From assembly GCA_046331565.1 (NCBI GenBank), contig JAXLQP010000001.1:2158347-2222346 (forward strand): a DNA stretch of 64,000 nucleotides, given 5' to 3'. The notes under the pieces were generated by a model that saw only the letters and a program-made list of their open reading frames with translations, was not told where the DNA came from and made no database searches. Source of the DNA: Blastocatellia bacterium (GTDB lineage: Bacteria; Acidobacteriota; Blastocatellia; RBC074). Positions within the stretch are counted from its first letter, which is position 1. The number at the start of each line of letters is the position of its first letter. Of this stretch, positions 1-30,908 are shown in pieces. The position numbers and the translations under genes are program-made.

Positions 1-430
1 TCGAGCAGAAACGGTTCATCATTCACCAGCGCCTCAACCAGCGCGACGGCCTGCGCCAGCAGATACCTCGCGCCCTGCTCGGCCTTGTATTCGATGGCCA
101 CGCGATACCAGCCGGGCTGTCCCGCCGCGCGAGTCTTGCCGTGACTGGCCGGAATGCCGCACTGCGAGGCCAGTTCCAGCGCGACGTGCTCGACGATGTG
201 ACCGAAGTAAGTGCCTTCATCAAGTCGCTCAAGCAGGCCGCCTGCGCTGCCTTTCGCGCAATGATGATCAGCCAGGCCGGGCAGCAGTTTCAGCAGTCGT
301 TCATTGAAGCCGGAAAGCTCGCAGCTTTCACGGCCAGCCAGTCGTTCCAGATCAAGCAGCATTAAAAGAACAGGACGATGACTGTAAATGTTCGGTCCCG
401 CCAGGGTGCGGATTTCACCGATTCTCATTG
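1..430 (-). CDS. cphA: Cyanophycin synthetase CphA, N-terminal fragment. The gene continues beyond the window start and is absent from the ORF track because it runs off the edge.
   Basis: Own translation of the minus strand from ATG (complement 428-430): MRIGEIRTLAGPNIYSHRPVLLMLLDLERLAGRESCELSGFNERLLKLLPGLADHHCAKGSAGGLLERLDEGTYFGHIVEHVALELASQCG... This matches the conserved CphA N-terminus pattern (LRGPNxWS..LDLE..PGF.E.L..LP.L.EH.C...GGFLERV.EGT..GHVVEHVALEL). Confidence 0.6.
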
Positions 431-567
431 AGTTTTTTCTCCGAAAATTAATCACCTTCCAGCCCGCTCAGGGCGCAGACAGTTGAGCAAGCTTAATGCC
501 AGCCTGCATCGTGCCGCCGTGCCCGGCGCGCTGGCATATCACTTGATTCAGAATCAGTGGAGGAAAT

Positions 568-954
568 ATGAGCAAAACCGCTAAGAAAAAAGTCGCAGAA
601 ACACGCCCTGATCAGACCGGCGTGACTGATCCTGAAGCTGCCCGCAAGGATCTGATGGCTGAAGCCGGTGGTCGCAAACTTGAGCAGGAAATGGAAGAGT
701 ACAATTCAGTCAGCCCTGAACTGACCGCCGGAGATATTGACGCTGACTGGCAGGGGGCCGAAGACAGCGGCGAGGAAACTCCGGGCGGTGACGTTCCCAC
801 GCCTGATCAGGACAACATTGATGAACTCGGTCGCGCCGTCGGACTGGAGTTTCAGGACAACCAGGAACTGGAGACTCACGATGAAGTGCTGGCCAGGCGC
901 GACCGCCATCGCTGGGAACTCAATCGCAGTTCGACTGATGGCGATTCCATCTGA
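568..954 (+). CDS. Hypothetical acidic protein (128 aa).
   Basis: ATG preceded by GGAGG about 7 nt upstream. The ORF is followed by a strong intrinsic terminator. No recognisable domain. Confidence 0.5.
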   Translation: MSKTAKKKVAETRPDQTGVTDPEAARKDLMAEAGGRKLEQEMEEYNSVSPELTAGDIDADWQGAEDSGEETPGGDVPTPDQDNIDELGRAVGLEFQDNQELETHDEVLARRDRHRWELNRSSTDGDSI

Positions 955-985
955 ATTACGCGCCTGCCGAATCGCAAGCCGGAAT

Positions 986-1020
986 GCAGTCCCGGAAAGA
1001 TAATCCGGGACTGCATTTTT
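986..1020 (+). terminator. Rho-independent terminator.
   Basis: gcagtcccgg-aaagataat-ccgggactgc, a perfect 10-bp stem, followed by attttt. Confidence 0.6.
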
Positions 1021-1072
1021 GCGTCTGCTGTCAGGATGGGTTGATGATGAATGGCGAAAAAATGTCCGGCAG

Positions 1073-1155
1073 TGTTGCGCGATTTGCCAGAATCGCGCGG
1101 TATCCATCATCAGCCCGTTGAGCGGGCCGCGCGATTCTGGCAAATCGCGCAACAC
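1073..1155. repeat. MITE-like palindromic element, family A, copy 1.
   Basis: 28-bp inverted arms gtgttgcgcgatttgccagaatcgcgcg ... cgcgcgattctggcaaatcgcgcaacac. Near-identical copies lie at 30909-30992 and 32295-32378. Track ORF 706..1215(-) is a translation artifact of this element. Confidence 0.7.
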
Positions 1156-1208
1156 TCGCGTTTTCTGTTCACCGGACTGAACTTCGATCTGATTGGTTTT
1201 CCATTCTG

Positions 1209-1263
1209 AAAACAAAACAGCGAGTCCGGTAAATCATCTGATTTACCGGACTCGCTGTTTTTG
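1209..1263. terminator. Bidirectional terminator hairpin between convergent genes.
   Basis: acagcgagtccggtaaat..atttaccggactcgctgt, flanked by aaaacaaaac on one side and ttttt on the other. Confidence 0.55.
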
Positions 1264-1302
1264 TGACCGTTCGCCTGAGCGGAGACAGCGCCACTGTTTT
1301 AG

Positions 1303-1716
1303 TTAGGAATGCGCCGTATGTCCGCCTTCGGTTGGAATGTGTGTAGTGTGTGGAGCGCGCGCAAATGCGCCAGCGAGGAAAATTATGCCCAGAATGACGT
1401 GTACCACATTATCCGGCGTCATCGAATTCATCGCGCCCGGCGCTTCGTGGGCATTAACCAGGGCCGCAACGGTGGCCGGTGAAGCGAATCCAATAATGCC
1501 CAGCAGCAGGTAAATCACGCCGAAAATAATGCTGAACGTGCGGGCGGCGGTATATGAAGCGGCGAAACCAAAATATAACGCCAGCACACCGCTGATCAGA
1601 TGAATGATGTTGTGCATGCCTGAGAGATGCATCCCCATCAGGTTCGGAGCCGCATAGCCCAGCAAGCCAACCAGAATAAAGACCACGCCCAGAATTTTAC
1701 AGATTGTTCTGGCCAT
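1303..1716 (-). CDS. DUF4383-like small membrane protein.
   Basis: 4 predicted TM helices. RBS AGGAGGAA upstream of ATG. Similarity to DUF4383 membrane proteins is from memory. Confidence 0.5.
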   Translation of the reverse strand: MARTICKILGVVFILVGLLGYAAPNLMGMHLSGMHNIIHLISGVLALYFGFAASYTAARTFSIIFGVIYLLLGIIGFASPATVAALVNAHEAPGAMNSMTPDNVVHVILGIIFLAGAFARAPHTTHIPTEGGHTAHS

Positions 1717-2416
1717 AATTCCTCCTTCTCCACATTACTCAGGGGCTGCATTAAAAAAAAGAAATGGCTGCCTGAACTTGTGGTCGCCCTCCCCATGACG
1801 ACTACTAACTCAGGCAGCCGCTCCACTCACGACGGAAAGGAACTTACTCCCCCACAAGTTCCAGTGAATGCAATGTTGCATTCGTTCCGTACCTGAGCCT
1901 GACCAGAATCGCAAATGAATCGGTCGCCCTTACTTCAGCAACTGCCATGCCACCGCTGCCCGCATCGAACGAAACGCTAACCCTTCTGAAATCACTTCAT
2001 CTTTACTGCCTCGCAACCGATTTGCACTGCCGTGCGCAAAGTGATGAATCGAACAGATGCAGCACGCTGTATCACTCGACAGCACAGTGTACTGTCAGGC
2101 ATACGCCGGGCCGGTGCAGCGTTTTCTGCCCTGCAACAGCCGGATCAATCAGATCTGATTCGAGGCCGGAGCCGGGGGCCGCGAGGATTGTGAAATTCCG
2201 GCATTTCGCGCCACCTGACTCTGATCTCAAATCAGGTCTGGTAATCGTCATCTGTGGCTTTCGGCTTGCTGGGTTAACAAATCGTTCACCTGTTGAGTGA
2301 CGACGCTGCCAGTCAATAAATCAGTCATTGAAACGATCACTGTGACAACTGGCAATTGCTGCGGCGGGTGATGATAAATTCAAACTCATCGCTGATGAAT
2401 ACCAACCGGAGGAGTT

Positions 2417-3676
2417 ATGTCACGCGGACAAATCAAAATGTGGATGCTCAGAAAAATGATTGCAGGCATGCTGCGAACTGACCGTGATCGCAACCCGGCG
2501 AACGAACTGCTCGCCCTGGGCGTGGCGGCTGGCGCGGGCGCCGGGCTGATGTACCTGCTTGATCCTGATCGCGGCAGGCGGCGGCGCGCCGTGTTGCGTG
2601 ATGCGGCAGTTCGTTCGGCAAGTGACATCGGTTGTGCGGTCACGACCAGTTCGCGTGATCTGACCAATCGCGTCAAAGGGCTGGCGGCGATCACTTCGGC
2701 GGCCTTCACACACGACGAAGCTGATGATGAAGTCATCCGCGCGCGTGTCAGAGCCAGACTGGGCCGCGTGGTTTCGCACCCCGGCGCCATCGAAGTCAGC
2801 GTTCACAATGGCCGGGTCACCCTGGCGGGCGCAGTGCTGGCCAGCGAAGCCGATGAATTACAGTCCGCTGTGTCAGCCGTGCGCGGCGTCACCGAAGTCA
2901 GCAGTCGGTTGCAGGTACACCAGCACGCCGGTGATGTGCCGTCATTGCAGGGCGGGCGCCAACGCCAGAGCGAAGGGTCTGCGTTATGGCACAGGCAGTG
3001 GTCACCGGCGATGCGCCTGGTTTCAACCCTGACCGGCGGCGCGCTGATGGGCGTGTGTCTGCGCCGTCGTGATGCCGTCGGCGTGGCGCTTGGCACGGCT
3101 GGCTTCTTTCTGACGCTGCGCGCCACGACCAACCTGGAAATGAAACGGCTGCTTGGCGTGGGCGGAGGCTGTCGCGCCTTTGATGTCTGCAAAACAGTCA
3201 ACATCAACGCGCCGGTCGAGCAGGTCTTTGAGTACTGGACGAATTACGAAAACTTTCCGCACTTCATGCACAATGTTCGCGCCGTCCGCGATCTGGGCAA
3301 CAGCCGTTCCCGCTGGACTGTCGCCGGTCCCGCCGGAGTTCCGGTGGAATGGAACGCCATCATCACCGATTACGAACCCGGTCACCTGCTGGCCTGGAAA
3401 AGCGAACCCGGATCAATCATCAGAAATGCGGGCCTGATTCATTTTGAATCGAACGGCGATCAGCAGACGCGGGTCACGATCAGAATGTCGTACAACCCGC
3501 CCGCCGGAGCCTTTGGTCACGCCCTCGCACGCTTGCTCGGCGCTGATCCGAAACACGAAATTGATCAGGATATGATTCGCCTGAAAACGATGATTGAAAC
3601 CGGACATCCACCACACGATGCCGCGCAGCCCATCACTGAAGCAGCCTTCAGCGCGCGTGGCATGCAGCAGCGATAA
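2417..3676 (+). CDS. BON-domain plus SRPBCC (polyketide cyclase/dehydrase-like) protein.
   Basis: BON-like segment VIRARVRARLGRVVSHPGAIEVSVHNGRVTLAGAV..AVRGVTEVSSRLQV. The C-terminal domain is paralogous to the protein at 30298..30876 (shared motifs FW.NFEN.P..M.H.., W.A.GPAG..VEW.A.IT). Confidence 0.6.
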   Translation: MSRGQIKMWMLRKMIAGMLRTDRDRNPANELLALGVAAGAGAGLMYLLDPDRGRRRRAVLRDAAVRSASDIGCAVTTSSRDLTNRVKGLAAITSAAFTHDEADDEVIRARVRARLGRVVSHPGAIEVSVHNGRVTLAGAVLASEADELQSAVSAVRGVTEVSSRLQVHQHAGDVPSLQGGRQRQSEGSALWHRQWSPAMRLVSTLTGGALMGVCLRRRDAVGVALGTAGFFLTLRATTNLEMKRLLGVGGGCRAFDVCKTVNINAPVEQVFEYWTNYENFPHFMHNVRAVRDLGNSRSRWTVAGPAGVPVEWNAIITDYEPGHLLAWKSEPGSIIRNAGLIHFESNGDQQTRVTIRMSYNPPAGAFGHALARLLGADPKHEIDQDMIRLKTMIETGHPPHDAAQPITEAAFSARGMQQR

Positions 3677-3704
3677 TGTTTTATCCACCAGGCCGAACGA
3701 AGGG

Positions 3705-3882
3705 CAGAAAGACAGGAGACAAGGAGAAGAGGAGAAGAGGAGAAAAGGGGAAAAGGGGAAGAGGAGAAAGGGAGAAGCGGGGAAAAGGAGAAAGAGAGGA
3801 CAAGGGCTGTCTGCTCTCTCTTTCTCCTCTTCTCCTTTTCTCCTCTTCTTTCTTCGTGCTTCTTCGTGTGGCTTAGTGGAGG
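3705..3882. repeat. Polypurine (GA-rich) run followed by its complementary polypyrimidine (CT-rich) run; potential long hairpin or H-DNA.
   Basis: About 95 bp gagaagaggagaaaagggg... followed by ctctcttctcctcttctccttttctcc..., lying between convergent genes. The 3' end (3853-3882, cttcgtgcttcttcgtgtggcttagtgga) recurs at 11229-11258. Track ORFs 3413..3895(-), 3594..3911(+) and 3676..3876(+) are artifacts. Confidence 0.6.
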
Positions 3883-3891
3883 AAATTCTGT

Positions 3892-4764
3892 TCAATCCCG
3901 CTCACGGCTGATCAGTAATCCGTTGCCGGGCAGTTGCCACGTCGGGCGCTCAGGGCCAAAGGGCAGCGCCAGCAGGTGCGGCAGTTTCACTTCATCTGTC
4001 CGGCGATAAGCAGGCACGCCAATCGTGATTTCACTTTGGGGCACATCCAGTCGCAGCGTGCCGTGCAGGTAATCCCACACCGTCAGCCCGCTTGACCAGT
4101 TGGCGTCAGTTTCACGCCGATAAATTGAATGATGAATGCCGTGCATGCGCGGCGTGACGATGAAACGATTCAGCCTGCGCTCGAAGCCGCGCGACAGTCT
4201 GACATTTGAATGATGAAACATCACCGACAGCATCAGCAGCGTCTGCCAGACCGATAACGCCAGCGGTGAAACGCCGATCAGCCGCACCTGCGCGGCGCGC
4301 CAGGGCACCGACAGCAGCAGCTCACCGAAATGAAAGCGCAGCGCCGTCGAAGCGTCCAGATCGAGATCAATGTGATGTACCACATGAAAACGCCACAACA
4401 ACGGCACACGATGCGTCAGGTAATGCCACACATAAAGCGTGTAATCCATCAGCGTCACGGCCAGCGGCGCTTCAATCCAGAGCGGCAGTCCGAGTTGCGG
4501 CAGTAATCCTTTGTTCCGGCGCGCCACCTGCCGCGCCAGCGGCTGCACCACAGGGCGTTCAGCCAGTTGCAGCGCGACCGCGCCGCAGGCGGCAATGGAC
4601 AGGTTGCGCGCAGCGCGCTCCGGCTTCGCTTCGACCGGATGGCGCAGCGGGCGACGCCGCTCGAACCAGACCAGCGCGCCGAATGCGCCGATGATCAGCG
4701 GCGTCGTCAGCCAGGCGGGCAAAGTGCAGGTGCTGATTTTGTTCATGACGGGCTGATGCAGCAA
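3892..4764 (-). CDS. Sterol desaturase / fatty acid hydroxylase superfamily membrane protein.
   Basis: His-box motifs HYLTH, HVVHH and HGIHH with multiple TM segments, typical of di-iron membrane hydroxylases. Confidence 0.7.
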   Translation of the reverse strand: MLHQPVMNKISTCTLPAWLTTPLIIGAFGALVWFERRRPLRHPVEAKPERAARNLSIAACGAVALQLAERPVVQPLARQVARRNKGLLPQLGLPLWIEAPLAVTLMDYTLYVWHYLTHRVPLLWRFHVVHHIDLDLDASTALRFHFGELLLSVPWRAAQVRLIGVSPLALSVWQTLLMLSVMFHHSNVRLSRGFERRLNRFIVTPRMHGIHHSIYRRETDANWSSGLTVWDYLHGTLRLDVPQSEITIGVPAYRRTDEVKLPHLLALPFGPERPTWQLPGNGLLISRERD

Positions 4765-4825
4765 CCATTATTCCAGCCCGGCTCTGGCGTGTTGCTTGCA
4801 GACCTGAACGTGAAAGGAGGCGTTA

Positions 4826-4971
4826 TGTCAGACAAGGATCGTCAGAAAAAAGACGGGCGTGACAAGAACAAAAAAAATCAGGCGCGCCGCGCGGACAATC
4901 AGCACAGTGGCGTCAAAGTGGCCGACACTGAACAGCGCGGCAAGGCGAATAAAAGTTCATCAGGATCATGA
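4826..4971 (+). CDS. Small basic protein (48 aa).
   Basis: RBS GAAAGGAGG 6 nt upstream of ATG. Stop overlaps the next gene's start (ATGA), which suggests translational coupling. Confidence 0.35.
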
Positions 4972-5243
4972 CTGAAGCCATCGGCTGGATCAGTTCAGTA
5001 ATCCTGCTGCTGACCATTGGCAAACAGGTCTGGAAGCAGTGGCAGGAAGGCTCAAGCCAGGGCGTCTCGAAGTGGCTGTTCATCGGACAGATTGCCGCTT
5101 CAACCGGCTTTTCGCTCTATAGCTGGCTGCTGCGCAATCCGATTTTTATCATCACCAATCTGCTGCTGCTTTTGAGCGCAGTGGCCGGTTTGTGCATCGT
5201 GTTGTGGCAGCGGCGGCGCACCGCGCAGCAGCGTTCGTCGTGA
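4968..5243 (+). CDS. Small membrane protein (91 aa, 3 TM; SemiSWEET/PQ-loop-like size class).
   Basis: Three hydrophobic helices. A truncated paralog remnant lies at 8331-8447. Confidence 0.4.
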   Translation: MTEAIGWISSVILLLTIGKQVWKQWQEGSSQGVSKWLFIGQIAASTGFSLYSWLLRNPIFIITNLLLLLSAVAGLCIVLWQRRRTAQQRSS

Positions 5244-5470
5244 GCCATACAGCGCGACTGGCACCGGCTTTGCTCTGTCTGTGGGCGGGATCAGCGCGAT
5301 CTCAACGACAGGGTGATTGTGAATAAACCATTCCGTCCCGATGCAGGCCGGGTGTTTCTGAAAAGAACAACCGGCTGCGCCGGGACGGGACACATTCATT
5401 CTGATCTTCATTGCACGTCAGAACAGGCCGCCACCAGCAGCAGTTACAAAATGAGCGCAGATAAGCGCTG
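5103..5470 (+). repeat. Paralogous segment A of a segmental duplication; partner at 8331-8972.
   Basis: About 300 bp near-identical to 8331-8620, plus tail homology 5441-5470 versus 8945-8972. In copy A the downstream gene is reduced to a roughly 30-bp scar. Confidence 0.7.
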
Positions 5471-5824
5471 CCCTGATTCAATCAAAACTTACCCCTGACC
5501 GGCGGAGTCCTGCCGGGTATGTGCCTGCACCTTTATGATGACATCGGCGTTACGCTTGACCGAACCCTGTTTGGCGCGTACCCTCAAAGAGTCTGCCATG
5601 TGGCAGAAAGCCATCCAGTCTGAGTGGTAGCGAGGATGACTCCACAAAATGCCACTTGTGGAATCATCTCATCATGCACAATCCAGCCAGCTACGATTTT
5701 CTTATTGACTCAGTCTTGTGCAAAAGCGCGACGGTGATCGGCGCGGCTGATTCCGGCGGTTTCCCGGTTTGAAATCTGATGACCATTCCCTGCCGACGAC
5801 GGATGAAAGAAGAGGTAAAGCATT

Positions 5825-6067
5825 ATGATACTCAGTCTGGCTGATCCCGAAGACGCAGGCCGCAGGCTGGCAGGCGGCGAACAGCCTTACGAATTCAAAA
5901 CCAGTGATTCCGGAATCCGCATTACCGGCCCCGCCTGCCAGTTCGGAGCGGAATATCTGCAACGTCGCCGGGCAAACGGATTGTTTGCCGCCACGCTCGA
6001 AGAGGCGCAGGCCATCGCGCACGCCAGAGGAATCACCATCACCGGCGTCTGGTTTGTCAAAGGGTAA
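5825..6067 (+). CDS. Hypothetical protein (80 aa).
   Basis: ORF with a purine-rich RBS; no recognised domain. Confidence 0.3.
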   Translation: MILSLADPEDAGRRLAGGEQPYEFKTSDSGIRITGPACQFGAEYLQRRRANGLFAATLEEAQAIAHARGITITGVWFVKG

Positions 6068-6117
6068 GGAGTGGATGTACTGATGCAGGTCAGGGTGAAG
6101 GAAGTTGAGGCAGGGGC

Positions 6118-6390
6118 ATGATCTTGTGTGAGTTTTGCACGATGCAGCAGGCAGGCGGATGTCGCTTCGGCCACAACACCCCGAAGAAAATGAAGTGCGC
6201 CGATTTTGCGCCGGGGATTGAGCGATTCTGCGCCACCCCGACAGATTACACCGGGCGCGACCAGTTGAAGCAGATGGCCGTCTTTTTCGGTATTTCCGGC
6301 AGGGAACTGACCCGGATTCTGACCATGCATGAAAGCTGGCAGGATGAGCGGGCTGCCGAAAACCCGGCCCGTTTATCAAATTCCAGATGA
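6118..6390 (+). CDS. Hypothetical Cys-containing protein (90 aa).
   Basis: ORF only. Confidence 0.3.
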   Translation: MILCEFCTMQQAGGCRFGHNTPKKMKCADFAPGIERFCATPTDYTGRDQLKQMAVFFGISGRELTRILTMHESWQDERAAENPARLSNSR

Positions 6391-6402
6391 AAAAGGGACA
6401 GT

Positions 6403-6714
6403 ATGTTCAGACGACATCAGCCTGATGACAGACGCAGAAAAGCACGACCGGCTGCGCCTGCCCGGCGACGACCGGCACCCGGTCGCCCGGTCACGCGTGC
6501 CATTCCTGACGATTCCGGCACCGGAGATGAAAGCCGTTATTTCACGCGGCTGATGGAAAGAGAAATCGAACTGATGATCGTCCTCAGAGCGGGCGAACAG
6601 ATTGAAGGCCGCCTGGCGTGGTATGACCGGGCCTGTCTGAAAATTGTGCCCGGCGACGGCACACCCAGTCTGATTATTCCCAGAACCAGCATCAAATATC
6701 TTTACGAAGTGTAA
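6403..6714 (+). CDS. Putative Sm-like (Hfq-like) RNA-binding protein with an R/P-rich N-terminal tail.
   Basis: C-terminal 60 aa [37 protein letters not shown]....[11 protein letters not shown] loosely follows the Hfq Sm1/Sm2 hydrophobic pattern. Weak. Confidence 0.3.
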
Positions 6715-6787
6715 ACCACGCACAGTTCCGTTCATTGCGTCCCGCCACCGGAACGGCGAGGCCACCGTATCTCAGGAGACGAATCAA

Positions 6788-7015
6788 GTGAAGGAAGAAA
6801 TGATCGAGATGGAAGGCCGGGTGATTGAAAAACTCCCCAATGCCAGTTTTCTGGTGGGTGTGGATATTGCCCGGCAAAAACATCAAATCACGGCGCACCT
6901 CAGCGGCAGAATGCGCAGAAATTCCATCAGGGTTCTGGTGGGCGACCGCGTCACCGTCGAACTGACACCTTATGACCTCAACAAAGGTCGCATTACCTTC
7001 CGGCATCGAAGCTGA
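6788..7015 (+). CDS. infA: Translation initiation factor IF-1.
   Basis: [61 protein letters not shown] is near-canonical IF-1. GTG start with AGGAG 9 nt upstream. Confidence 0.85.
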
Positions 7016-7088
7016 CTGCCGGTTGCGGCAGCGCGCTCCGGGGTCAGGTCAGGCAACTCAGCGGCACGAGGCCGCCGGGAGATTTTCC

Positions 7089-7424
7089 ATGATATTCAAA
7101 GGCACAGTGGCCCTCAGTCAGCGCGATCTGTTTCAGAAGACGATGGCGTTGCATCATTCCGGGCAAACGGATGATGACATTGCGGCGCGGCTGGGAATCA
7201 CCTGCTCGACGGTCAGATATATCACCTCGCTCTTTCTGACCAGTCAGCACCATCCACAACGCGATCAGCACCCCCGCGTCGCATACGAACTGCGACTGGC
7301 CGGGCGCAGTTTCACCGAGATCAGCCAGATGCTGAACATCAGCCGCGCGCGCGCCCATCAACTGGTCCACAAATACGAGTGGAGTCTGCGCCGCCTCAGG
7401 CCGGGCGGGTTACGTGCACACTGA
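7089..7424 (+). CDS. Small protein with two HTH motifs (sigma-70 region-4-like).
   Basis: DDDIAARLGITCSTVRYI and GRSFTEISQMLNISRARAHQL. Start moved to internal ATG 7089 because the 6972 start overlaps infA. Confidence 0.4.
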   Translation: MIFKGTVALSQRDLFQKTMALHHSGQTDDDIAARLGITCSTVRYITSLFLTSQHHPQRDQHPRVAYELRLAGRSFTEISQMLNISRARAHQLVHKYEWSLRRLRPGGLRAH

Positions 7425-7431
7425 CTGCACA

Positions 7432-7941
7432 ATGAAGCTGACTTTATCTGAAATAAAAATGAATGTGCTGCTGTGGTGGCGGCAACGCCAGCTCAGATCC
7501 GGGAACCGGCAGACACGGCAGCGCGCCATCAGAGGCATGAGCAACTCGGCTGATCCGCGCTGGCTGGCTCCGCTGATGTCTGCCCTGCGGGATGAATCCT
7601 GGCTGGTGCGCAGGGAAGCAGCACGGGCGCTGGGCAGGATTGGTGATGCGCAATCCGTCAGGCCGCTGCTCAATCTGCTCGGTGACAGCTTTCATCCGGC
7701 CATTGCCGCGACGACGGTCAGGGCGCTCGAAAAAGTTCTCAGCCGGACGCTCACCCGGACCCTGCCTGAAGATGTCAAAGCTGCGGCGAGTCTGGGCGAT
7801 ATCAGCGGCTTCAATCGTGAGTGCCGGGTCGGTATCGCCTGGTTTTCCAGCTCAGGCAATCCGAAAGGGTGGACAGCCGATTGTTCACGCATCAGGAAGC
7901 TGGCTCAGCAGGAATTGATTCGTCGCGGGCTGAATACCTGA
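7432..7941 (+). CDS. HEAT / PBS-lyase repeat protein.
   Basis: LVRREAARALGRIGDAQSVRPLLNLLGD and similar HEAT-like units. Confidence 0.5.
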   Translation: MKLTLSEIKMNVLLWWRQRQLRSGNRQTRQRAIRGMSNSADPRWLAPLMSALRDESWLVRREAARALGRIGDAQSVRPLLNLLGDSFHPAIAATTVRALEKVLSRTLTRTLPEDVKAAASLGDISGFNRECRVGIAWFSSSGNPKGWTADCSRIRKLAQQELIRRGLNT

Positions 7942-8104
7942 GCAGTGGACGGCCTCCTTCAGCGACTCCGCTTCTGACCTGAAAGTTTCTCTCTGCATCC
8001 GGTCACGACCCCGGCCCTCCGGCCTTAACCTGAAATCCGGGACGCATCAGCCATCATCTGTGTGTCAGGTGATGCGGCAGGATGCCACCGGAAGAAAGCA
8101 TCCG

Positions 8105-8293
8105 ATGAAAAAAACCATGATTGAAAACAAGTACCATAAGGTGCTGGCTATCGCTCAGCGTGCCAGACAGCTTCAGAAAGGCGCGCGCGCGCTCGTCCAT
8201 CTCTCCGGCGCAAGATTCACGCGCATTGCCTTTGAAGAAGTTGATCGCGGGCTGATCAGCTATGACACTGGCAACGCGACGGAAAAAGACTGA
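8105..8293 (+). CDS. rpoZ: DNA-directed RNA polymerase subunit omega.
   Basis: ENKYHKVLAIAQRARQLQKGARALV...IAFEEVDRGLI matches the omega signature (AxRARQ, helix, EE..GL). Confidence 0.7.
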   Translation: MKKTMIENKYHKVLAIAQRARQLQKGARALVHLSGARFTRIAFEEVDRGLISYDTGNATEKD

Positions 8294-8330
8294 TAAAAAT
8301 GCTGACGATCAGCGAATCTGTTCATCATTA

Positions 8331-8972
8331 ACCGGCTTTTCGCTGGCATTCCGATTTTCGTCAGCAGCCTGCTGCTGTTGAGCGCGGCGGGTCGGTTTGT
8401 GCATCGTGTTGTGGCAGCGGCGGCGCACCGCGCAGCAGCGTTCGTCGTGAGCCATACAGCGCGACTGGCACCGGCTTTGCTCTGTCTGTGGGCGGGATCA
8501 GCGCGATCTCAACGACAGGGTGATTGTGAATAAACCATTCCGTCCCGATGCAGACCAGGTGTTTCTGAAAAGAACAACCGGCTGCGCCGGGACGGGACAC
8601 ATTCATTCTGATCTTCATTTCATTCCATCAGACATTCAACCACGAAAGGAACAGACCGTTATGGCTAACGCAGGCAGAATGAGTTCCAGCAAACATTTCC
8701 CGCTCGACAACCTGACCTATGATCTGATTACCGTCATTCACGAAAAATCCAAAGCGCTCGAAGCCTATGATCAGTACCTTCAGGACGCGCAGAGCAATGA
8801 ACGGGTCAGACAGTCATTTGAAAAAATTCGCAAACAGGATGAGGAATGCATCAGTGAGTTGCAGCAGCATCTGGGCTTTCTGATCGGCCAGCAGCAGCAA
8901 AGCAGCAGCACGCAGTCAGGCACGTCAAGATCGGCCACCACCGGCAGCGGCAGCTCACAAAGTGAGCGCAGA
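8331..8972 (+). repeat. Paralogous segment B of the segmental duplication. Contains a 5'-truncated copy of the 4968..5243 gene plus an intact downstream gene.
   Basis: See segment A. Track ORFs 5100..5411(-) and 8361..8618(-) give near-identical peptides because of this repeat. Confidence 0.7.
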
Positions 8973-8975
8973 TAA
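8661..8975 (+). CDS. Hypothetical protein with a Q/S-rich tail (104 aa).
   Basis: ATG at 8661 with AAAGGA RBS. Intact only in segment B. Confidence 0.45.
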   Translation: MANAGRMSSSKHFPLDNLTYDLITVIHEKSKALEAYDQYLQDAQSNERVRQSFEKIRKQDEECISELQQHLGFLIGQQQQSSSTQSGTSRSATTGSGSSQSERR

Positions 8976-8983
8976 GCGCGGCA

Positions 8984-9088
8984 GATGGAGTGCGGCGAGT
9001 TCTCGCCGCTTTGCGTTCGGGGGCCGGGTCTTCATGGCAGGCCGCACCGCTGAAAACGAAAGCGGTGACGAGTCACCGCACTCCACAT
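8984..9088. repeat. Palindromic element, family B, copy 1.
   Basis: Arms gatggagtgcggcgagttctcgccgcttt ... aaagcggtgacgagtcaccgcactccacatc. A second copy lies at 42166-42236. Confidence 0.6.
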
Positions 9089-9101: not shown

Positions 9102-9791
9102 TCAGAAAATGATGCCGACTGACAAACGGATGTTATCCTGCCGCTGACCTTCGAGCGTCACGGGTTGAATGGCGCCGGCGCTGCCCAGCACATTGATTGA
9201 ACGGTCGCGCAGGAAGACCGGCGCCCAGTCCACCTGCACCAGGCGCAGGCTGAATTTGTCGCCCAGCCTGACATTCACCCCGCCACCAAGCCCCATGGCA
9301 AAATCGGTCGTGCTGGTATCAAAGGAACTGGTGACTGTGCCATTCGTCACATTACGCACTGATTCAACATTGAAGTGGGTATTCGCGCCGCCGAACAACG
9401 CATGCACAAACGGCTCAATTCGGCTGGAATTGCGCAGCTTGAGTACCGGCCCGCCCATAAAATAAGTGACCCGGTGTTCCACCGAATCGCGCCCGTTGGT
9501 CACGGCAGTTGAATCCTCGTTGCGATGGAACGAGACATCACCCTTCAATCCGACGCCTGAATTAAAGAACCAGGAAAGAGAACCATCAACGCCGTGCAAT
9601 CCCTTGCGGCGATCAAAGAAATTGCTGTTGAAAACATTGGATGGATCGTTGCGATCAGGCACGCCTTCGGCCTGCAGGTTCGAGTAACCGATAAAAACTT
9701 CGGCGCGTTTGTCGCTGCCACTGCTGCTTTGCGCGAGCGCGGCGGTAGTCATCAGCATCAGACACACGGTCATAAGTAAAAGTTTGTTCAT
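9102..9791 (-). CDS. Outer-membrane beta-barrel protein (OmpW/OmpA-like small porin).
   Basis: Signal peptide MNKLLLMTVCLMLMTTAALAQ, alternating amphipathic beta-strand pattern, C-terminal ...SVGIIF. Confidence 0.6.
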   Translation of the reverse strand: MNKLLLMTVCLMLMTTAALAQSSSGSDKRAEVFIGYSNLQAEGVPDRNDPSNVFNSNFFDRRKGLHGVDGSLSWFFNSGVGLKGDVSFHRNEDSTAVTNGRDSVEHRVTYFMGGPVLKLRNSSRIEPFVHALFGGANTHFNVESVRNVTNGTVTSSFDTSTTDFAMGLGGGVNVRLGDKFSLRLVQVDWAPVFLRDRSINVLGSAGAIQPVTLEGQRQDNIRLSVGIIF

Positions 9792-10078
9792 ACCTCAGTT
9801 CTTCTCCTTTTTGATTTACTGTCTGTCGTTGGAATGCCTGCGCTGTCCACAGAACATTCACAGAGGTGTTAGCAAACAGTATTCCCTGATTAGAAACTGA
9901 GTTCAGCAGGCAGGTTTCAGGCGAATATTTGTGGCCTGAAATGCGAGGGGTGGAAAGGCAGACTGAGGGAACAATGACCTGGCGAAAGAAAGCAGGCCCT
10001 GTCCCCTCGTCCCCTTTGTCTTTGTTGCGTGCTGTTGCGGGTGGCTTCGTGCAGGAGTCTGTTCCTGAACTTCATCAT

Positions 10079-11131
10079 TCAGCGAACGCCCTTCATCTTT
10101 TTGATGTAATCGCCATCCACGCCGTGAATCCGCAGTTTGACCAGATCATCGGCTGAAAGATTGCTGTATCCGGCCTCACGCATCTCGCGGACGAACTGCG
10201 GGCTGACGCCGTGAATGCGAAACTGCACCAGTTTGTCTGCTGACAGATTGCTGTAACCAAGCTCGCTCATCGCTTTGACGTATTCCGGTTTGACGCCGTG
10301 AATGCGAAAGGCGATCAGTTTATCTGCCGACAGGTCACTGTAACCGAGCGTCTTCATCTCTTTGATAAAGGCCGCGCTGACGCCGTGAATGCGAAAGGCG
10401 ATGAGTTTATCAAGCGGCAGCTTGTCATACCCGAACGATTTCATTTCGTTGATGAACTCTTCGCTGACGCCGTGAATGCGCAGCGCGACGAGTTTGTCAG
10501 CCGGAATGTCGCTGTAACCGAGCGCCCGCATTTTGTTCACAAACTCGGCATTGACGTTGAAGATGCGAAACGAGATCAGTTTGTCGAGCGAGAGCTTGTC
10601 ATAACCGAGCGATTTCATTTCGGCCATGAACTTCGTGCTGACATCGTGAACCGCCATCGTAAACAGCTTTTCAGTCGAAGGAGCCTCAAAGCCCATCTGC
10701 TGCAACTGCGCTGCAAATGATGCATTCGGCGCGAAGCGGAATTCACCGACGCCTTTGCCTTCGCTGAACAGCCCGTCAAAAGTGACCGAACCGGCTTCGC
10801 GGTTGAGCGAGAACTGCACCTTTGAATTTGCGTTCGGGTTGAGGCCGGTGAAATCAGCAAGCGGCACCTCAAAGCCCCACTGTGACCACCGCTTCCGGCC
10901 TTCGCGGTCTACGGTCAGCGAAAGGTAAAGCTGCGGCCCGCGATCAGTGTTTCTGACCTTCGCCGTCCAGTCACCGGCAATCGGTTCATTCGCATTCTGA
11001 GCGGCGCGGTACGGACGCGATAAACCAGCGGCCACGAGCAGCGCCACAACGACGATCATCATTTTTCGCATAACCTGTTCCCTTCTTGTCCGACAGGAAG
11101 ATTTCATCCACCAGGGCACACGAAGGTTCAC
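10079..11131 (-). CDS. Secreted protein with 6 tandem 29-aa repeats shared with the BlaR1-like transducer. Likely true start at signal peptide MRKMMIVVVALLVAAGL (about 11071).
   Basis: Repeats LSLDKLISFRIFNVNAEFVNKMRALGYSD / IPADKLVALRIHGVSEEFINEMKSFGYDK / ... / LSADDLVKLRIHGVDGDYIKKMKGVR. Period is 87 bp in the DNA. Confidence 0.6.
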   Translation of the reverse strand: MNLRVPWWMKSSCRTRREQVMRKMMIVVVALLVAAGLSRPYRAAQNANEPIAGDWTAKVRNTDRGPQLYLSLTVDREGRKRWSQWGFEVPLADFTGLNPNANSKVQFSLNREAGSVTFDGLFSEGKGVGEFRFAPNASFAAQLQQMGFEAPSTEKLFTMAVHDVSTKFMAEMKSLGYDKLSLDKLISFRIFNVNAEFVNKMRALGYSDIPADKLVALRIHGVSEEFINEMKSFGYDKLPLDKLIAFRIHGVSAAFIKEMKTLGYSDLSADKLIAFRIHGVKPEYVKAMSELGYSNLSADKLVQFRIHGVSPQFVREMREAGYSNLSADDLVKLRIHGVDGDYIKKMKGVR

Positions 11132-11143
11132 GAAGAAGAATCA

Positions 11144-11218
11144 GACAGGATTAACAGGATAAACAGGATATTTCTGGTTGAAACAGTTCTGTTTATCCTG
11201 TCTTTCCTGTAAATCCTG
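11144..11218. repeat. Hairpin whose arms are 3 tandem 9-bp units (AACAGGATA x3 / TATCCTGTn x3).
   Basis: acaggattaacaggataaacaggata ... tatcctgtctttcctgtaaatcctgt. Intergenic between the blaR1-like stop and the repeat-protein gene. Confidence 0.6.
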
Positions 11219-11280
11219 TCAAAAATCTTCGTGCTTCTTCGTGTGGCTTAGTGGATAAGAAATGTGACTGAATCAGCGGT

Positions 11281-13722
11281 TCATTTCTTCAGCAGGATTT
11301 CGTCAATCCCGCGCATTTTCAGTTCAATCAACTGATTCGCTGAAACGTTTTTGAATCCGGCGGCGCGCATCTTTCTGATGTAATCGCCGGTGACGCCGTG
11401 CATTCGCATTTTGATCAGTTCGTCCACGGTCAGTTTGTCAAAGCCTGCGTCGCGCAGTTCTTTGATCCAGTCTTCAGTGACACCGAACATACTGAGCCTT
11501 GTCAGTTGCTCAGCGGTCAGATTGCTGTACCCGTTGCGGCGCAGGGCTTCCATAAAGGCGGGCGTGACGCCGTGCATGCGCATCTTCGTCAGATCATCAG
11601 CCGACAGGTTGCTGAAACCCGCGCTGCGCATCTCTTTGATGTAATTTTCGGTGACGCCGTGCATACGCAGGCGGGTGATCTGTTCGGCGCTGAGATTGCT
11701 GTAGCCGTTCCTGCGCAGCGTTTCAATGTACTCAGGCGTGACGCCGGACATGCGCATCCGGGCGAGCGATTTCAGCGGCAGGTCGTAACCGGCCTTCTTC
11801 ATTTCGCGGATGTAATCAGGGCTGATGCCTGACATTTTCAGTTGCACCAGGTCGCTGACCGTCAGCTTTTCACCGGTCTGACTGCGCGCTTCTTTGATGA
11901 AATCTTCAGTGACGCCGTGCATTTTCAACTGTACGACTTCCCTGATTTGCAGGTTGTCGTAACCCATCCTGCGCAGCATTTCGATGTATTCGGGCGTGAC
12001 GCCGTACATCTTCAACTGCACAATGTTCTCAGCCGTCAGCGCAGTTGATTCGCCTTTGCCCTGCTGTCCTGATGACTGTGCCAGCCCGTCAGCGAGCGCC
12101 CGCTCCTGAACTTTCCGCATCTCTCTGTCCAGTTTCGTCGCAATCCTGACCTCAATCTTTTCTCTGACCTGTGCGAGTTCCTGCTGCAATTCCTGAGAGA
12201 TCATCTGCGAAGTTGATTCACGCGCAGCGCGCTGCGCCATTGCTGCGATTTCAGCCTGAAGCTTTCCGATTTCGCGCTGAATCCTTTTCACTTCGGCGGC
12301 GCTGATCTTTTCAGCCGCGCCCCTGGCCTGAAGTTCAGCCAGTTCTCTGATCTGATCATTCAGTTCCTGACGCTTCTCATCCAGATCAGCACGCAGTTCT
12401 TCGGCGCGACTCTGCTCATCTGCGATGGCATCAGCAGCTTCATCCTGCGCGGCTTCCAGGTCGCGGCTGTCTGCGGGTTCGGCGGACTGTGCAGGCTGTG
12501 GCGGCTGCGGCGGCTGTGGTTTGTTCCCGGGTTGCGGCGTATCAAGTGGCGCGGCGGATTTCTCTGCTTTCTGCTTCTCCTGCGCTGAAGCATTTGCCCA
12601 GGGCTGCAACGCCGCCAGCGGAATAATGAAGCTGACCACCGCGCAGGTGATCAGCGTCGTGATGCGTCGCGTCATGCGCTGGCGTCTGACAGCCGGATCA
12701 AGAATCGCCCGCACGCGGCTTTCAAGCTGTGAACAGGCCATCCCCACCGCGACCGGCGAAACAGAGCTGACATCACTCATCGCCCGCGCAATGTTCACCA
12801 GATAACCGGCGTAATCAGAAGCCCGTGTACCGACCTCCAGCACGTAATCATCACAGGCCAGTTCGCGTTCGACGCGCAGCCGTCGCGCGCCGATCCAGAC
12901 CAGCGGATTGAACCAGTACAACGCGCACGCCACCTGCGCCAGCAACTGCGTCAGACAATCGCGCCGCCTGATGTGCGCCAGTTCGTGCAGCAGCACAATC
13001 TGACGCCATTCAGCCGACCATTCATCAGCGTCATCAGGCAGCAGCACGACCGGACGCCAGATGCCCCACGTCATCGGCATCGTGACCTGATCGCTTTTGA
13101 GCAGGGGAATGTGCCTGTCCAGATCAAGCTGCATTGCCAGCCGCTTCACGATGGCCGACCAGGCGTAACCGGTCAGCACTTCGGCATCACGCGCAATGGC
13201 CCAGACCCTGATCAGGCTGACGGCCAGCCGCGCCAGCACGATGAATGCGCCCGTCAGCCAGACGAGCAGCACAAGCTGCGGCCACTGCACTGAAGGCGTT
13301 GCATTACTCACCTGTGACGGCGCGGCGCTGGCTGTCGGCGCTTCATCCTTCAGTTCCTGCGCGGAGTTTTCAACCAGTGGCGGATAAGTCAGCCGCTGAT
13401 CTGTCGGATCAGTCGCGCTCAGTTCGGCTACATCCACCGGCGCTGCAATATCTGATGATGCCTGCGCGGTCATCAGTTCAGGCAGCAGCGGCAACTGCCA
13501 GCCCGGCAGCGCCATTGACAGCACGGGCAGCGCGAGCAGACTGATGACGGCCAGCGTCCAGACCAGATGCCGCGTTGCCGCCGCCGCGCGCCGCAGCGTT
13601 ACCACCAGCAGCGCCGTTGCGACCAGAATCAGCGCGCCTTTAAGCGTCACATCCAGCAGCATCTGAAACCTGACAACCGGCAGCGACGACAGCGCAAAGA
13701 AAGCGGGCAGTGTGGTCATCAT
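11281..13722 (-). CDS. BlaR1-type M56 metallopeptidase signal transducer with a non-canonical sensor: coiled coil plus 8.5 tandem 29-aa repeats.
   Basis: TM helices, HEXXH motif HELAHIRRRD, further TM, P/Q-rich linker, E/K/A/Q coiled-coil-like 140 aa, then repeats LTAENIVQLKMYGVTPEYIEMLRRMGYDN ... No PBP/transpeptidase-like sensor. Confidence 0.75.
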   Translation of the reverse strand: MMTTLPAFFALSSLPVVRFQMLLDVTLKGALILVATALLVVTLRRAAAATRHLVWTLAVISLLALPVLSMALPGWQLPLLPELMTAQASSDIAAPVDVAELSATDPTDQRLTYPPLVENSAQELKDEAPTASAAPSQVSNATPSVQWPQLVLLVWLTGAFIVLARLAVSLIRVWAIARDAEVLTGYAWSAIVKRLAMQLDLDRHIPLLKSDQVTMPMTWGIWRPVVLLPDDADEWSAEWRQIVLLHELAHIRRRDCLTQLLAQVACALYWFNPLVWIGARRLRVERELACDDYVLEVGTRASDYAGYLVNIARAMSDVSSVSPVAVGMACSQLESRVRAILDPAVRRQRMTRRITTLITCAVVSFIIPLAALQPWANASAQEKQKAEKSAAPLDTPQPGNKPQPPQPPQPAQSAEPADSRDLEAAQDEAADAIADEQSRAEELRADLDEKRQELNDQIRELAELQARGAAEKISAAEVKRIQREIGKLQAEIAAMAQRAARESTSQMISQELQQELAQVREKIEVRIATKLDREMRKVQERALADGLAQSSGQQGKGESTALTAENIVQLKMYGVTPEYIEMLRRMGYDNLQIREVVQLKMHGVTEDFIKEARSQTGEKLTVSDLVQLKMSGISPDYIREMKKAGYDLPLKSLARMRMSGVTPEYIETLRRNGYSNLSAEQITRLRMHGVTENYIKEMRSAGFSNLSADDLTKMRMHGVTPAFMEALRRNGYSNLTAEQLTRLSMFGVTEDWIKELRDAGFDKLTVDELIKMRMHGVTGDYIRKMRAAGFKNVSANQLIELKMRGIDEILLKK

Positions 13723-14108
13723 CGTCCTTCCTTTCTGGCCTTTTCGATCAGTTGCGACAGGCGGTCGAGTTCCTCACGCGAAAGCTGGCGGCGGTTCAGA
13801 TCAAGCAGCGCCGCGACAGCCTGTTCGGTCGAACCGTCAAAGAATGTTTCAAGCAGCGACCGCATGGCCGATTTGCGGGCCTTTTCGCGCGCGAGCGTCG
13901 GCAGGTAAATGTACCGCTGTCCGTCCTGCTCGTGCCGCAGGTACCCTTTCTCTTCCATCAGTCGCAGCAGCGCCCGCACTGCCGAATAGCTCGGAGGATC
14001 GGGCAGGTTTTCCATGACTTCCTGCGCCGTCGCCTGCCCGCGCTGATGAATGATGTCCATAATCTGCCGCTCGCGGCGGCTCAGATGAAGATGGGCCTGT
14101 CTGGTCAT
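13719..14108 (-). CDS. BlaI/MecI/CopY-family transcriptional repressor.
   Basis: LSRRERQIMDIIHQRGQATAQEV...YSAVRALLRLMEEKGYL winged-helix; C-terminal dimerisation helix. Stop overlaps the blaR1-like start (ATGA). Confidence 0.8.
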   Translation of the reverse strand: MTRQAHLHLSRRERQIMDIIHQRGQATAQEVMENLPDPPSYSAVRALLRLMEEKGYLRHEQDGQRYIYLPTLAREKARKSAMRSLLETFFDGSTEQAVAALLDLNRRQLSREELDRLSQLIEKARKEGR

Positions 14109-30876: not shown

Positions 30877-30908
30877 GCCGGATCAGATTTCAGATCAGTA
30901 TCCAGGAA

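Follow-up and report, generated by a model that had tools for sequence, protein, structure and literature searches.

The two near-identical segments that bracket the infA-rpoZ block are most probably (about 0.75) the copies of an old segmental duplication left by a local rearrangement of gene order. The window, i.e. the whole 64-kb stretch of DNA analysed here, interleaves two ancestral gene neighbourhoods, and the rearrangement, whose scar the duplication is, was followed by complementary loss, each copy keeping a different one of two neighbouring genes.

Copy A, at window positions 5102-5471, and copy B, at 8330-8982, form a direct repeat whose match is far beyond chance, so that the paralogous segments placed at 5103-5470 and 8331-8972 by an earlier, sequence-only reading are real. 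The repeat consists of a decayed left arm, a 233-nt core at 98% identity and a short tail. Left-arm homology starts at 5102/8330 with 15 identical nucleotides and continues at ∼85% of aligned bases, with 16 nt and 6 nt deleted and 1 nt inserted in copy B; the core (5183-5415 versus 8390-8622) is gap-free, 98.3% identical and present exactly twice within the 64-kb window; and the right tail (5446-5471 versus 8957-8982) matches at 92%. The host is a soil bacterium of the class Blastocatellia, represented by a metagenome-assembled genome from which the window was taken. Contig L010, which stems from a different sample and is ∼93% identical to the window, carries the two copies as well as the block, with identical junctions. 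Features below lie on the forward strand unless stated otherwise.

Copy A retains the upstream gene. Its left arm (5102..5182) is functional coding sequence of an intact SemiSWEET-like (MtN3/PQ-loop) membrane protein gene (4968..5243, 91 aa; Pfam MtN3_slv 24 bits, cut-off 23.7), whose 3′ half lies within copy A and whose 645 homologs are in many cases annotated as SemiSWEET or PQ-loop; its intactness had been recognized previously. The gene start is overlapped (ATGA) by p48 (4825..4971), a basic small ORF of 48 aa that has a strong GGAGG ribosome-binding site upstream, belongs to the same ancestral neighbourhood and is conserved in position in L001, L003, L005 and L010. The copy A core (5183..5415) comprises the SemiSWEET 3′ end and the former intergenic/promoter region of a small 104-aa gene, of which only a scar (5416..5464) remains, namely approximately the last 17 codons and the stop (TAA, 5462-5464); the scar had been noticed earlier, although at ∼50 nt it is longer than the 30 bp then proposed. 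Alignments place the deletion junction at 5415|5416, and the 300 nt that copy A lacks, bordered by a ‘CA’ microhomology, are precisely positions 8623-8922, within copy B. Past the stop, copy A keeps ∼25 nt of ancestral flank (5465..5493), whose homologous sequences are the tail of copy B in L010 and the post-stop sequence of L003; the window from 8983 onward shows no homology to it.

Copy B shows the reverse. Its left arm (8330..8389), the decayed counterpart of the copy A arm, is a SemiSWEET pseudogene fragment in which the two deletions and the insertion break the frame and an in-frame stop (TGA) occurs; the truncation seen in the first reading thus holds, while homology covers approximately the last 46 codons and not 35. 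The copy B core (8390..8622) combines a non-functional SemiSWEET 3′ end with the small gene's functional upstream region, and the alignments assign to the piece unique to copy B (8623..8922) the ribosome-binding site, the start codon and ∼87 codons of that gene. As had been stated, the small gene is intact here (8661..8975, 104 aa); 51 homologs were found, with homologs at 82-98% identity, and its protein has a weak, sub-threshold similarity to the DUF2383 and EncB ferritin-like four-helix-bundle families (Pfam DUF2383 23.8 bits, below the cut-off of 30.8; NCBIfam EncB_fam E = 9e-5). A terminator-like hairpin (8992..9009) follows, paired with a convergent one (9079-9062) that serves an outer-membrane beta-barrel protein (OMP) gene (9102..9791, reverse strand; Pfam OMP_b-brl), the end of this neighbourhood (neighbourhood I).

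The block between the copies is entered through junction J1 (5494..5553), which is conserved only in L010 and has no homology in L003 and L014. The start of the second neighbourhood (neighbourhood II) is marked by a promoter-like motif (TTGACC, 17 nt, TACCCT; 5556-5584) that is conserved in relatives, though not called by a generic promoter scan. With the leader that precedes the first gene, likewise conserved and possibly structured, it forms a segment (5556..5665) nearly invariant in the nucleotide alignment of the window, L010 and L014; the leader has two compensatory pairs and no Rfam match. The first gene, p80 (5825..6067), is a conserved small ORF with 76% identity in L014 and 93% in L010, homologs of 57-63% identity in eight metagenome loci and no match in Pfam, NCBIfam or PHROG. 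The conserved Cys-rich small ORF p90 (6118..6390; tblastn identities 62% in L014, 48% in L015 and 44% in L104) is paired with infA in relatives, standing immediately 5′ of it in L014 and L015. Then come an Hfq_1-related gene (6403..6714, 103 aa; Pfam Hfq_1 30 bits, cut-off 27) with a homolog in L099 spanning residues 11-102; infA for translation initiation factor IF-1 (6788..7015; TIGR00008 98 bits, cut-off 61), its protein 100% identical to that of L010; a 111-aa protein with two helix-turn-helix (HTH) motifs resembling sigma-70 region 4 (7089..7424; Pfam HTH_23 and Sigma70_r4; 61% identity to a homolog in L014); and a lineage-restricted HEAT-repeat protein (7432..7941, 169 aa; Pfam HEAT_2 60 bits), for which a single orthologous cluster (94% identity) was found among 5.8 billion proteins. 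The last gene is rpoZ for the RNA polymerase omega subunit (8105..8293; Pfam RNA_pol_Rpb6 43 bits, cut-off 26; TIGR00690 25.7, cut-off 23.6). Profile matches therefore bear out the block contents as first read, with the two conserved small ORFs p80 and p90 added. The locus is prone to deletion, as a 126-aa ORF, p126, intact in L010 (4223-4603), is cut in the window to its last 10 codons (7945..7974; tblastn 90% over 10 aa; blastn L010 4571-4610 versus window 7945-7984, 97.5%). Junction J2 (8294..8329), from the block end to copy B, may contain ∼30 nt of very decayed SemiSWEET homology.

Comparison with relatives revealed the two neighbourhoods apart. There, SemiSWEET and the small gene adjoin with no block between them, and at least five related loci in Blastocatellia have the SemiSWEET/small-gene/OMP neighbourhood uninterrupted. 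The full adjacency of SemiSWEET, small gene and OMP gene is present in L003/L004; SemiSWEET adjoins the small gene in L005-L009, there without the OMP gene; and the small gene keeps the same upstream synteny in L094-L096, which have no confirmed SemiSWEET. Adjacency of the small gene and the OMP gene also recurs in L003, L094 and L096. As for neighbourhood II, homologs of p80, p90, infA, rpoZ and the HTH gene in L014/L098 directly abut homologs of window 10079-14108 (reverse strand), which encodes a 29-aa-repeat protein, BlaR1 (M56 peptidase) and a BlaI-type repressor by Pfam match; this stretch is collinear with L014 2254-7215, directly following the block in that genome. The same genome has a block-free SemiSWEET/small-gene site (L005/L006), and it is the single genome on which the ancestral state of neighbourhood II rests; its block places rpoZ before the HTH gene and is devoid of the Hfq-related and HEAT genes. 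Since the window from 10079 onward thus belongs to the neighbourhood of the block and not to that of SemiSWEET, the arrangement is an interleaving, and neither a simple local tandem duplication nor a simple insertion. Of the tandem duplication with complementary decay suggested earlier, the retention of one ancestral gene per copy stands, with the same junctions in L010, but not the simple local tandem event.

The other earlier suggestion, insertion of the block by recombination between repeats, is not favoured. In its Campbell-type form, a circle with the infA-rpoZ block and a SemiSWEET/small-gene copy would have entered by a single homologous crossover, for which the repeat-block-repeat layout would be the product. 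Contig L001, in which the left side of copy A is joined to the right side of copy B with no block, would likewise be the product expected if the repeats recombined and the block was lost; yet L001 may be an assembly chimera, as its coverage is 3x and the two copies do not differ over the 40 nt in which the switch falls. Moreover, genes for an integrase, replication or mobilisation are missing from the block, as are tRNA and phage hallmark genes, the circle must already have carried a fragment of its target locus, and the ancestral right neighbours of the block (repeat protein, BlaR1, BlaI), now beyond copy B and the OMP gene, are left unexplained. We thus consider this route unlikely.

The near-identity of the copies does not signal a recent event. 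When site patterns were compared between the window and L010, 10 left-arm sites group the orthologs and 1 groups the paralogs, indicating that the duplication predates the split of the two lineages, while in the core 22 sites group the paralogs and 0 the orthologs. Over the core, A and B are 98.3% identical in the window; the figure for L010 is 96.4%, and comparisons between the genomes give 89-92%. The copies have evolved in concert, and these patterns, newly recognized in this analysis, point to homogenisation of the core by gene conversion separately in each lineage, to which the near-identity can be ascribed. The conversion tracts, spaced 3.2 kb apart in direct orientation, stop at the first indel on either side and measure 233 nt in the window and ∼270 nt in L010.

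Could such repeats be maintained for a function, either as recombination sites for reversible loss or amplification of the block, or as twin promoters co-regulating the block and the small gene? The core holds the upstream region of the small gene, which in copy A now faces the block, it is near-identical in two lineages, and L001 is a possible block-less recombinant. Against this, a conserved promoter-like motif belongs to the block itself, homogenisation ends exactly at indels, as passive recombination would, and block loss would remove what may be the sole infA and rpoZ; functional maintenance therefore seems quite improbable. Recent independent duplications in each lineage, which would make gene conversion unnecessary and could explain why core identity is higher within genomes (98% and 96%) than between them (∼90%), are hardly credible, since separate events would not reproduce the shared breakpoints (J1, J2 and the 300-nt deletion junction), the copy B left arm is similarly decayed in both lineages, and left-arm sites favour the ortholog grouping by 10 to 1.

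An assembly artefact had been named as the reading to guard against. Taken as a collapse or chimera of two strain variants, one with and one lacking the small gene, it is effectively refuted. The metagenomic origin of the window, the end of contig L002 exactly at the repeat-core end (5412) and the alternative join in L001 could speak for it, but L010, from a different sample, spans the whole structure with identical junctions, J2 included; L107 and L109, which bear out the L010 version of the copy A side, share with the window and L010 the deletion junction TCA|CGTCAG; and the many old left-arm indels between the copies are unlike strain variants. The short-read contig L108 also rebuilds window 5383-8422 at 100%, with J2 and both copy-specific junctions; it may share raw data with the window assembly, so the fully independent evidence is the L010 lineage.

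For the rearrangement that we favour, the following history is proposed. Ancestral neighbourhood I would have comprised an FA-hydroxylase gene, p48, SemiSWEET, the small gene and OMP, and neighbourhood II p80, p90, infA, rpoZ, HTH, repeat protein, BlaR1 and BlaI. In the common ancestor of the window and L010 lineages the order would have become I-left, II-left (the block), I-right and II-right, with the block flanked on each side by a segment running from the 3′ half of SemiSWEET via the intergenic region and the small gene to ∼25 nt past the stop of the latter. The most likely route is a duplication spanning the region with later deletion of redundant parts, either as a tandem duplication from which surplus copies were lost or as a copy-and-paste of I-right and subsequent deletion. 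As one working copy per gene was enough, the small gene of copy A was lost through the 300-nt deletion at the CA microhomology; in copy B the SemiSWEET fragment begins mid-gene, and its 5′ part is decayed. Recombination between the copies then homogenised the indel-free homologous stretch repeatedly, independently per lineage. No intermediate arrangement, e.g. I then II in simple order, was found among the relatives, and the entire window lacks the relatives' post-OMP genes (AI-2E transporter, HAD hydrolase, rhodanese), requiring at least one further deletion or translocation. No tRNA, integrase, phage hallmark or other mobile-element gene is present. The case is a tidy, ordinary trace of past genome rearrangement, an event of known kind.

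A close formal counterpart is the tandem-duplication/random-loss model that is standard in animal mitochondrial genomics, e.g. in the CREx rearrangement inventory (PMC3283314). As in that model, two gene sets swap order, partial copies mark the losses and each gene ends up single-copy, here on a bacterial chromosome and not in a mitochondrial genome. For the model to apply, neighbourhoods I and II must have been next to each other beforehand, and in its strict form it predicts remnants of two other lost segments, one from a duplicate OMP gene at J1 (5494-5553) and one from a duplicate block at J3 (9792-10078), neither of which was found there; copy-and-paste plus deletion fits equally well. 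Integrative elements such as prophages and genomic islands with att repeats likewise have direct repeats around a block, the left one completing a gene 3′ end. Unlike them, the present locus has no integrase, tRNA, phage or conjugation genes, its repeat is hundreds of bp long and includes a second gene, and the block genes are conserved, housekeeping-type and have an ancestral chromosomal location. Reciprocal gene loss after duplication, with its duplication-degeneration logic, has been described after whole-genome duplication in yeasts. Here too, two duplicated two-gene units each keep a different gene, so that both copies are now indispensable, at the far smaller scale of ∼650 bp and two genes; as copy B never held the SemiSWEET 5′ half, part of the ‘loss’ is a duplication breakpoint. 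RecA-dependent gene conversion also drives concerted evolution among paralogs in bacteria, with tufA/tufB in Salmonella and the rRNA operons as classic examples. Whereas those are selected full-length genes, the tract here is mostly non-coding or pseudogene sequence of 233-270 nt, but it shares with these cases that paralogs are closer than orthologs though the duplication predates the split, and that the tract is bounded by heterology.

A repeat search of the whole 64-kb window yielded one long direct repeat, in which 5183-5415 matched 8390-8622 over 233 nt, ungapped and at 98% identity; this core is present in two copies only in the 64 kb, with a similarity far above chance and collinear homology in its flanks. 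By alignment, the leftward homology was found to reach 5102 and 8330, with 15 nt exact and then ∼85% of the aligned bases identical, and the left arm of copy B (8330-8982) carries a 16-nt and a 6-nt deletion and a 1-nt insertion relative to copy A (5102-5471). On the right, a 26-nt tail (5446-5471 versus 8957-8982, 92%) follows, and the 300 nt that separate core and tail in copy B (8623-8922) are missing from copy A, with the deletion junction between 5415 and 5416 at a CA microhomology of two bases. The hexamer GAACAG in copy A was considered as a remnant of a ribosome-binding site and dropped, as a comparison with copy A of L010, a relative's contig of the same architecture (∼93% identical), places the true junction at TCA/CGTCAG. 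Elsewhere in the window, a 121-nt segment recurs in three dispersed copies of 69-74% identity (1069-1189, 30906-31026 and 32292-32412), which probably reflect paralogous genes.

Each copy retains one intact gene and a remnant of the other's. Upstream and reaching into copy A lies an intact 91-aa SemiSWEET-like gene (4968-5243), the product of which scored just above the cut-off of Pfam MtN3_slv (24.0 versus 23.7 bits) and below that of the NCBIfam model SemiSWEET_1 (14.6 versus 200); its domain and its length agree with those of SemiSWEETs, which are MtN3/PQ-loop proteins of ∼90 aa that span the membrane three times, and hundreds of its homologs carry the names SemiSWEET or PQ-loop. Copy B harbors the intact 104-aa small gene (8661-8975); 51 homologs were found, and the protein resembles DUF2383 and EncB-type four-helix bundles only below the thresholds of these families. 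Exact-protein look-ups of the two products in the window returned no match. The SemiSWEET homology in copy B begins at about codon 46 and is a pseudogene fragment, because it is frameshifted and has an in-frame TGA, while of the small gene about the last 17 codons are left in the ∼50-nt scar of copy A. In relatives both genes are adjacent, representing an ancestral unit that held the two. Hence, the proposal of the sequence-only reading that paralogous segments bracket the infA-rpoZ block was confirmed by the repeat search and the alignment, and complementary decay after duplication was upheld by the adjacency in relatives and by the one intact gene and one remnant in each copy; its description of the repeat was accurate overall, except that the scar measures ∼50 rather than 30 nt and the SemiSWEET homology in copy B ∼46 rather than 35 codons. 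The gene content that it had assigned to the block, i.e. infA, rpoZ and HEAT, HTH and Hfq-like ORFs, was likewise recovered by Pfam and NCBIfam searches.

The 2.9 kb between the copies encode seven ORFs, namely p80 (5825-6067), p90 (6118-6390), an Hfq_1-related protein (6403-6714), infA (6788-7015), a double-HTH protein (7089-7424), a HEAT-repeat protein (7432-7941) that is lineage-restricted and confined to one ortholog cluster, and rpoZ (8105-8293). InfA exceeded the equivalog cut-off of TIGR00008 (98.1 versus 61.15 bits) and that of Pfam eIF-1a (75.7 versus 30.2), and RpoZ, the RNA polymerase omega subunit, matched Pfam RNA_pol_Rpb6 (43.2 versus 26 bits) and, marginally, TIGR00690 (25.7 versus 23.6). 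As infA of the closest relatives (L014 and L015) is also paired with p90 outside a ribosomal cluster, the infA in the window, seen within 64 kb of the 3.29-Mb contig, is suggested to be the canonical copy. Upstream of p80, window 5556-5665 (L010 1757-1875, L014 150-275) contains a promoter-like motif (TTGACC, 17 nt, TACCCT) conserved in L010 and L014, followed by ∼90 nt that are nearly invariant, though the proteins are 60-80% identical between the genomes; the region contains two hairpins with one compensatory change each, and may represent a so far undescribed leader or small RNA that belongs to the infA-rpoZ cluster. Rfam gave nothing in the window at gathering thresholds, 5556-5665 included, and the sole match in a relaxed search of 5240-5900 was a chance microRNA.

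We then compared the synteny of relatives, on which the sequence-only reading had asked whether infA and rpoZ also lie between the SemiSWEET and small genes; the block is absent from that site in L003-L009. In L003/L004 (GCA_035560235) the order is FA-hydroxylase (− strand), p48, SemiSWEET, small gene and OMP (− strand), with no block within 10 kb, and in L005-L009 (GCA_035652435 and related contigs) SemiSWEET adjoins the small gene without the block. At the DNA level the identity is ∼80% for L003, against ∼93% for L010. The small gene stands in the same upstream synteny in L094-L096, and is followed by OMP in L094 and L096. A genome scan with infA yielded two close relatives only, and the genome of the window itself was not among its matches. 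L014, another contig of the L005/L006 genome, has the order p80, p90, infA, rpoZ and HTH; immediately after these, the genes of a repeat protein, an M56 peptidase (BlaR1) and a repressor (BlaI) lie on the other strand, and these three are homologs of window 10079-14108. From the block-less L003/L004-type site and the L014 block adjoining these homologs, the window is seen to interleave two ancestral neighbourhoods, with the duplication sitting exactly at the interleaving: the left part of neighbourhood I (1-5243 plus copy A), the left part of neighbourhood II, i.e. the block, starting at the promoter-like motif (5556-5584) conserved in L010 and L014, the right part of I (copy B, small gene and OMP), and the right part of II (10079 onward). 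No intermediate arrangement was detected among L094-L097, three further small-gene relatives, and no locus with the two neighbourhoods adjacent was found in a metagenome scan with p80 or in the other relatives examined.

Two further features of these neighbourhoods were observed. At 10079-13722 (− strand), tandem 29-aa repeats (motif roughly ...LSADKLIAFRIHGVSPEFVKEMK..GY...) make up a 350-aa protein that matched nothing in Pfam and also the C-terminal region of its neighbour, the BlaR1 M56 peptidase, with tandem 87-nt units at 10119-10553 and 11306-11737; the same protein pair is present in L014, and the repeats look like an uncharacterised repeat domain tied to BlaR1/BlaI sensors in Blastocatellia. 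Between the BON/polyketide-cyclase and FA-hydroxylase genes lies a purine-rich tandem repeat (3714-3793; AGGAGAAA, ∼10 copies, or a 24-nt unit in 3.3 copies). At this place L003 (5611-8572) has four extra genes, encoding a hydrolase, a phosphoribosyltransferase, an erythromycin esterase and an 81-aa ORF, which are absent from the spacer in the window (3676-3892), and L005 has a different set (a LysM protein and others), so that the spacer is another variable spot in neighbourhood I.

The block itself is a conserved but fluid chromosomal cluster of Acidobacteriota, because distant metagenome loci keep p80 with varying subsets of p90, Hfq-related, HTH and rpoZ genes in differing orders, and because the p90-infA pair of L015 is flanked by a DEAD-box helicase and FabI rather than being part of a ribosomal cluster. 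Gene order within the cluster differs between window 5825-8293 and L014 420-2214, L099, L101, L104 and L106; rpoZ precedes HTH in L014 and follows HEAT in the window, whereas in L101 and L106 it is encoded on the other strand, and the Hfq-related gene, which the window and L099 possess, is lacking in L014. The partners that vary least are the small ORFs p80 and p90. Between the HEAT gene and rpoZ, L010 carries a 126-aa ORF (4223-4603) with no Pfam or PHROG match, of which the window keeps the last 10 codons (7945-7974), the result of a lineage-specific deletion inside the block.

L010 also allowed the duplication to be dated. The copy A deletion junction TCA/CGTCAG, the junction from the rpoZ flank to copy B and the junction upstream of the block are common to the window and L010; because these are identical, the duplication, the deletion and the junctions are older than the ∼7% divergence of the two lineages. 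Four copies (A and B of the window and of L010), from two lineages with both copies, were then aligned and informative sites counted. In the left arm (5102-5182), 10 sites grouped orthologs and 1 grouped paralogs; in the core (5183-5415), the counts were 0 and 22. Within the core, A and B share 98.3% of positions in the window and 96.4% in L010, versus an identity of 89-92% between the genomes, and paralogs within a genome have derived states in common that orthologs lack. Since the left arm groups orthologs, the core groups paralogs, and the A-B identity exceeds that between genomes, gene conversion seems to have homogenised the core independently in the two lineages, a signature of concerted evolution. 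The converted tract stops at the first homology-breaking indel on both sides. The near-identity of the copies is thus not evidence of a recent event, as conversion would have homogenised the core.

The best-supported reading is a rearrangement that involved a duplication, after which redundant parts were lost. By one route, the segment from the 3′ half of SemiSWEET to the block, with the small gene and OMP in between, would have been duplicated in tandem and then trimmed by deletions; by the other, the SemiSWEET fragment, small gene and OMP would have been pasted to the right of the block, and the original small gene and OMP deleted. Each route yields the block-to-copy-B junction and leaves copy A, and both fit; the interleaved order of I-left, II-left, I-right and II-right fits one tandem duplication plus losses. 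Remnants of lost duplicates were found for SemiSWEET and the small gene only, with no trace of OMP at 5494-5553 or of the block at 9792-10078, and the spacer at 9780-10090, considered as a holder of block remnants, gave chance-level matches only. The genes following OMP in relatives (AI-2E transporter, HAD hydrolase and rhodanese) do not occur in the window, and one more deletion or translocation, if not several, must therefore have taken place. Insertion of the block via recombination between the repeats, the alternative of the sequence-only reading, for instance by Campbell-type integration of a DNA circle that carried the block, is less probable: it would account for direct repeats flanking the block, but leaves the nearby right-hand ancestral neighbours of the block unexplained, and the block lacks genes for an integrase, for replication and of phages, with no tRNA nearby. 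Its ORFs matched no recombinase, phage structural, replication or conjugation family in Pfam, NCBIfam or PHROGs; apart from weak HTH families, their only PHROG match was to a family of unknown function that resembles IF-1, and the tRNA scan was negative.

The window derives from a 3.29-Mb contig of a Blastocatellia metagenome-assembled genome (locus tag U0Z53_08245). An assembly artefact, a possibility raised in the sequence-only reading, is contradicted by the recovery of copy-specific junctions in L010, L107, L109 and L108, and the duplication is real. L010 (ENA ERZ17991889, 5631 bp, a different sample) spans both copies and the block as a single contig, in the order FA-hydroxylase, p48, SemiSWEET, scar, block, rpoZ, copy B and small gene, with ∼93% identity over the block and its left flank and ∼91% from rpoZ to the small gene. 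The SemiSWEET-scar-block side of the L010 lineage was recovered in two additional samples as well (L107 and L109), and L108 is 100% identical over window 5383-8422, both copy-specific junctions included, with raw data maybe shared with the genome bin. L002 (99.4% identical) ends precisely where the core ends, as is typical of assemblers at repeats.

One contig, L001 (ENA ERZ17991719, 1990 bp, 3x coverage), joins a copy A type left part to a copy B type right part without the block, the switch point lying within a 40-nt stretch identical in both copies, and a block contig, L011, occurs in the same sample at similar coverage. Its left part differs from L010 by 0.8%; its right part differs from copy B of L010 by 3%, mostly in the unusually diverged, low-complexity C-terminal tail of the small gene. 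The 22-nt tail of L001 was considered as block sequence after an intact small gene and dropped, since the L010 alignment shows a copy B type tail. L001 could be an assembly chimera or a true case in which recombination removed the block; if infA and rpoZ each occur only once, a genome lacking the block would not be expected to survive. We regard as improbable, at long odds, a reading in which the locus is a rare bacterial case of gene order altered through duplication with complementary loss, well preserved with its scars, and in which its gene-converted repeats remain substrates for recombination, with the block lost or amplified in part of the population and L001 being such a recombinant; if true, recombining repeats would bring copy-number variation of core transcription and translation factors.

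The duplication with loss of redundant parts makes the locus a clean, datable example of bacterial gene-order change, instructive for the event-dating shared junctions, the sharp converted/unconverted boundary in the repeat and the interleaving of two ancestral neighbourhoods. Short non-coding repeats 3 kb apart can stay almost identical long-term through gene conversion, and for annotation a near-identical repeat need not be a recent event, a mobile element or a mis-assembly, which is relevant also to the binning and assembly of uncultured Acidobacteriota. The placement of infA and rpoZ in a fluid cluster with conserved small ORFs (p80, p90, Hfq-related and double-HTH) in Blastocatellia and related Acidobacteriota may merit study of its own. 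The findings imply neither a new mechanism nor a new molecular system. Changes of gene order that proceed via duplication and loss have been formalised mainly for mitochondrial genomes (for instance PMC3283314); the locus described here is an instance of such change, of complementary loss of duplicates and of concerted evolution by gene conversion, i.e. a well-documented instance of three well-known processes and not a new kind of element.
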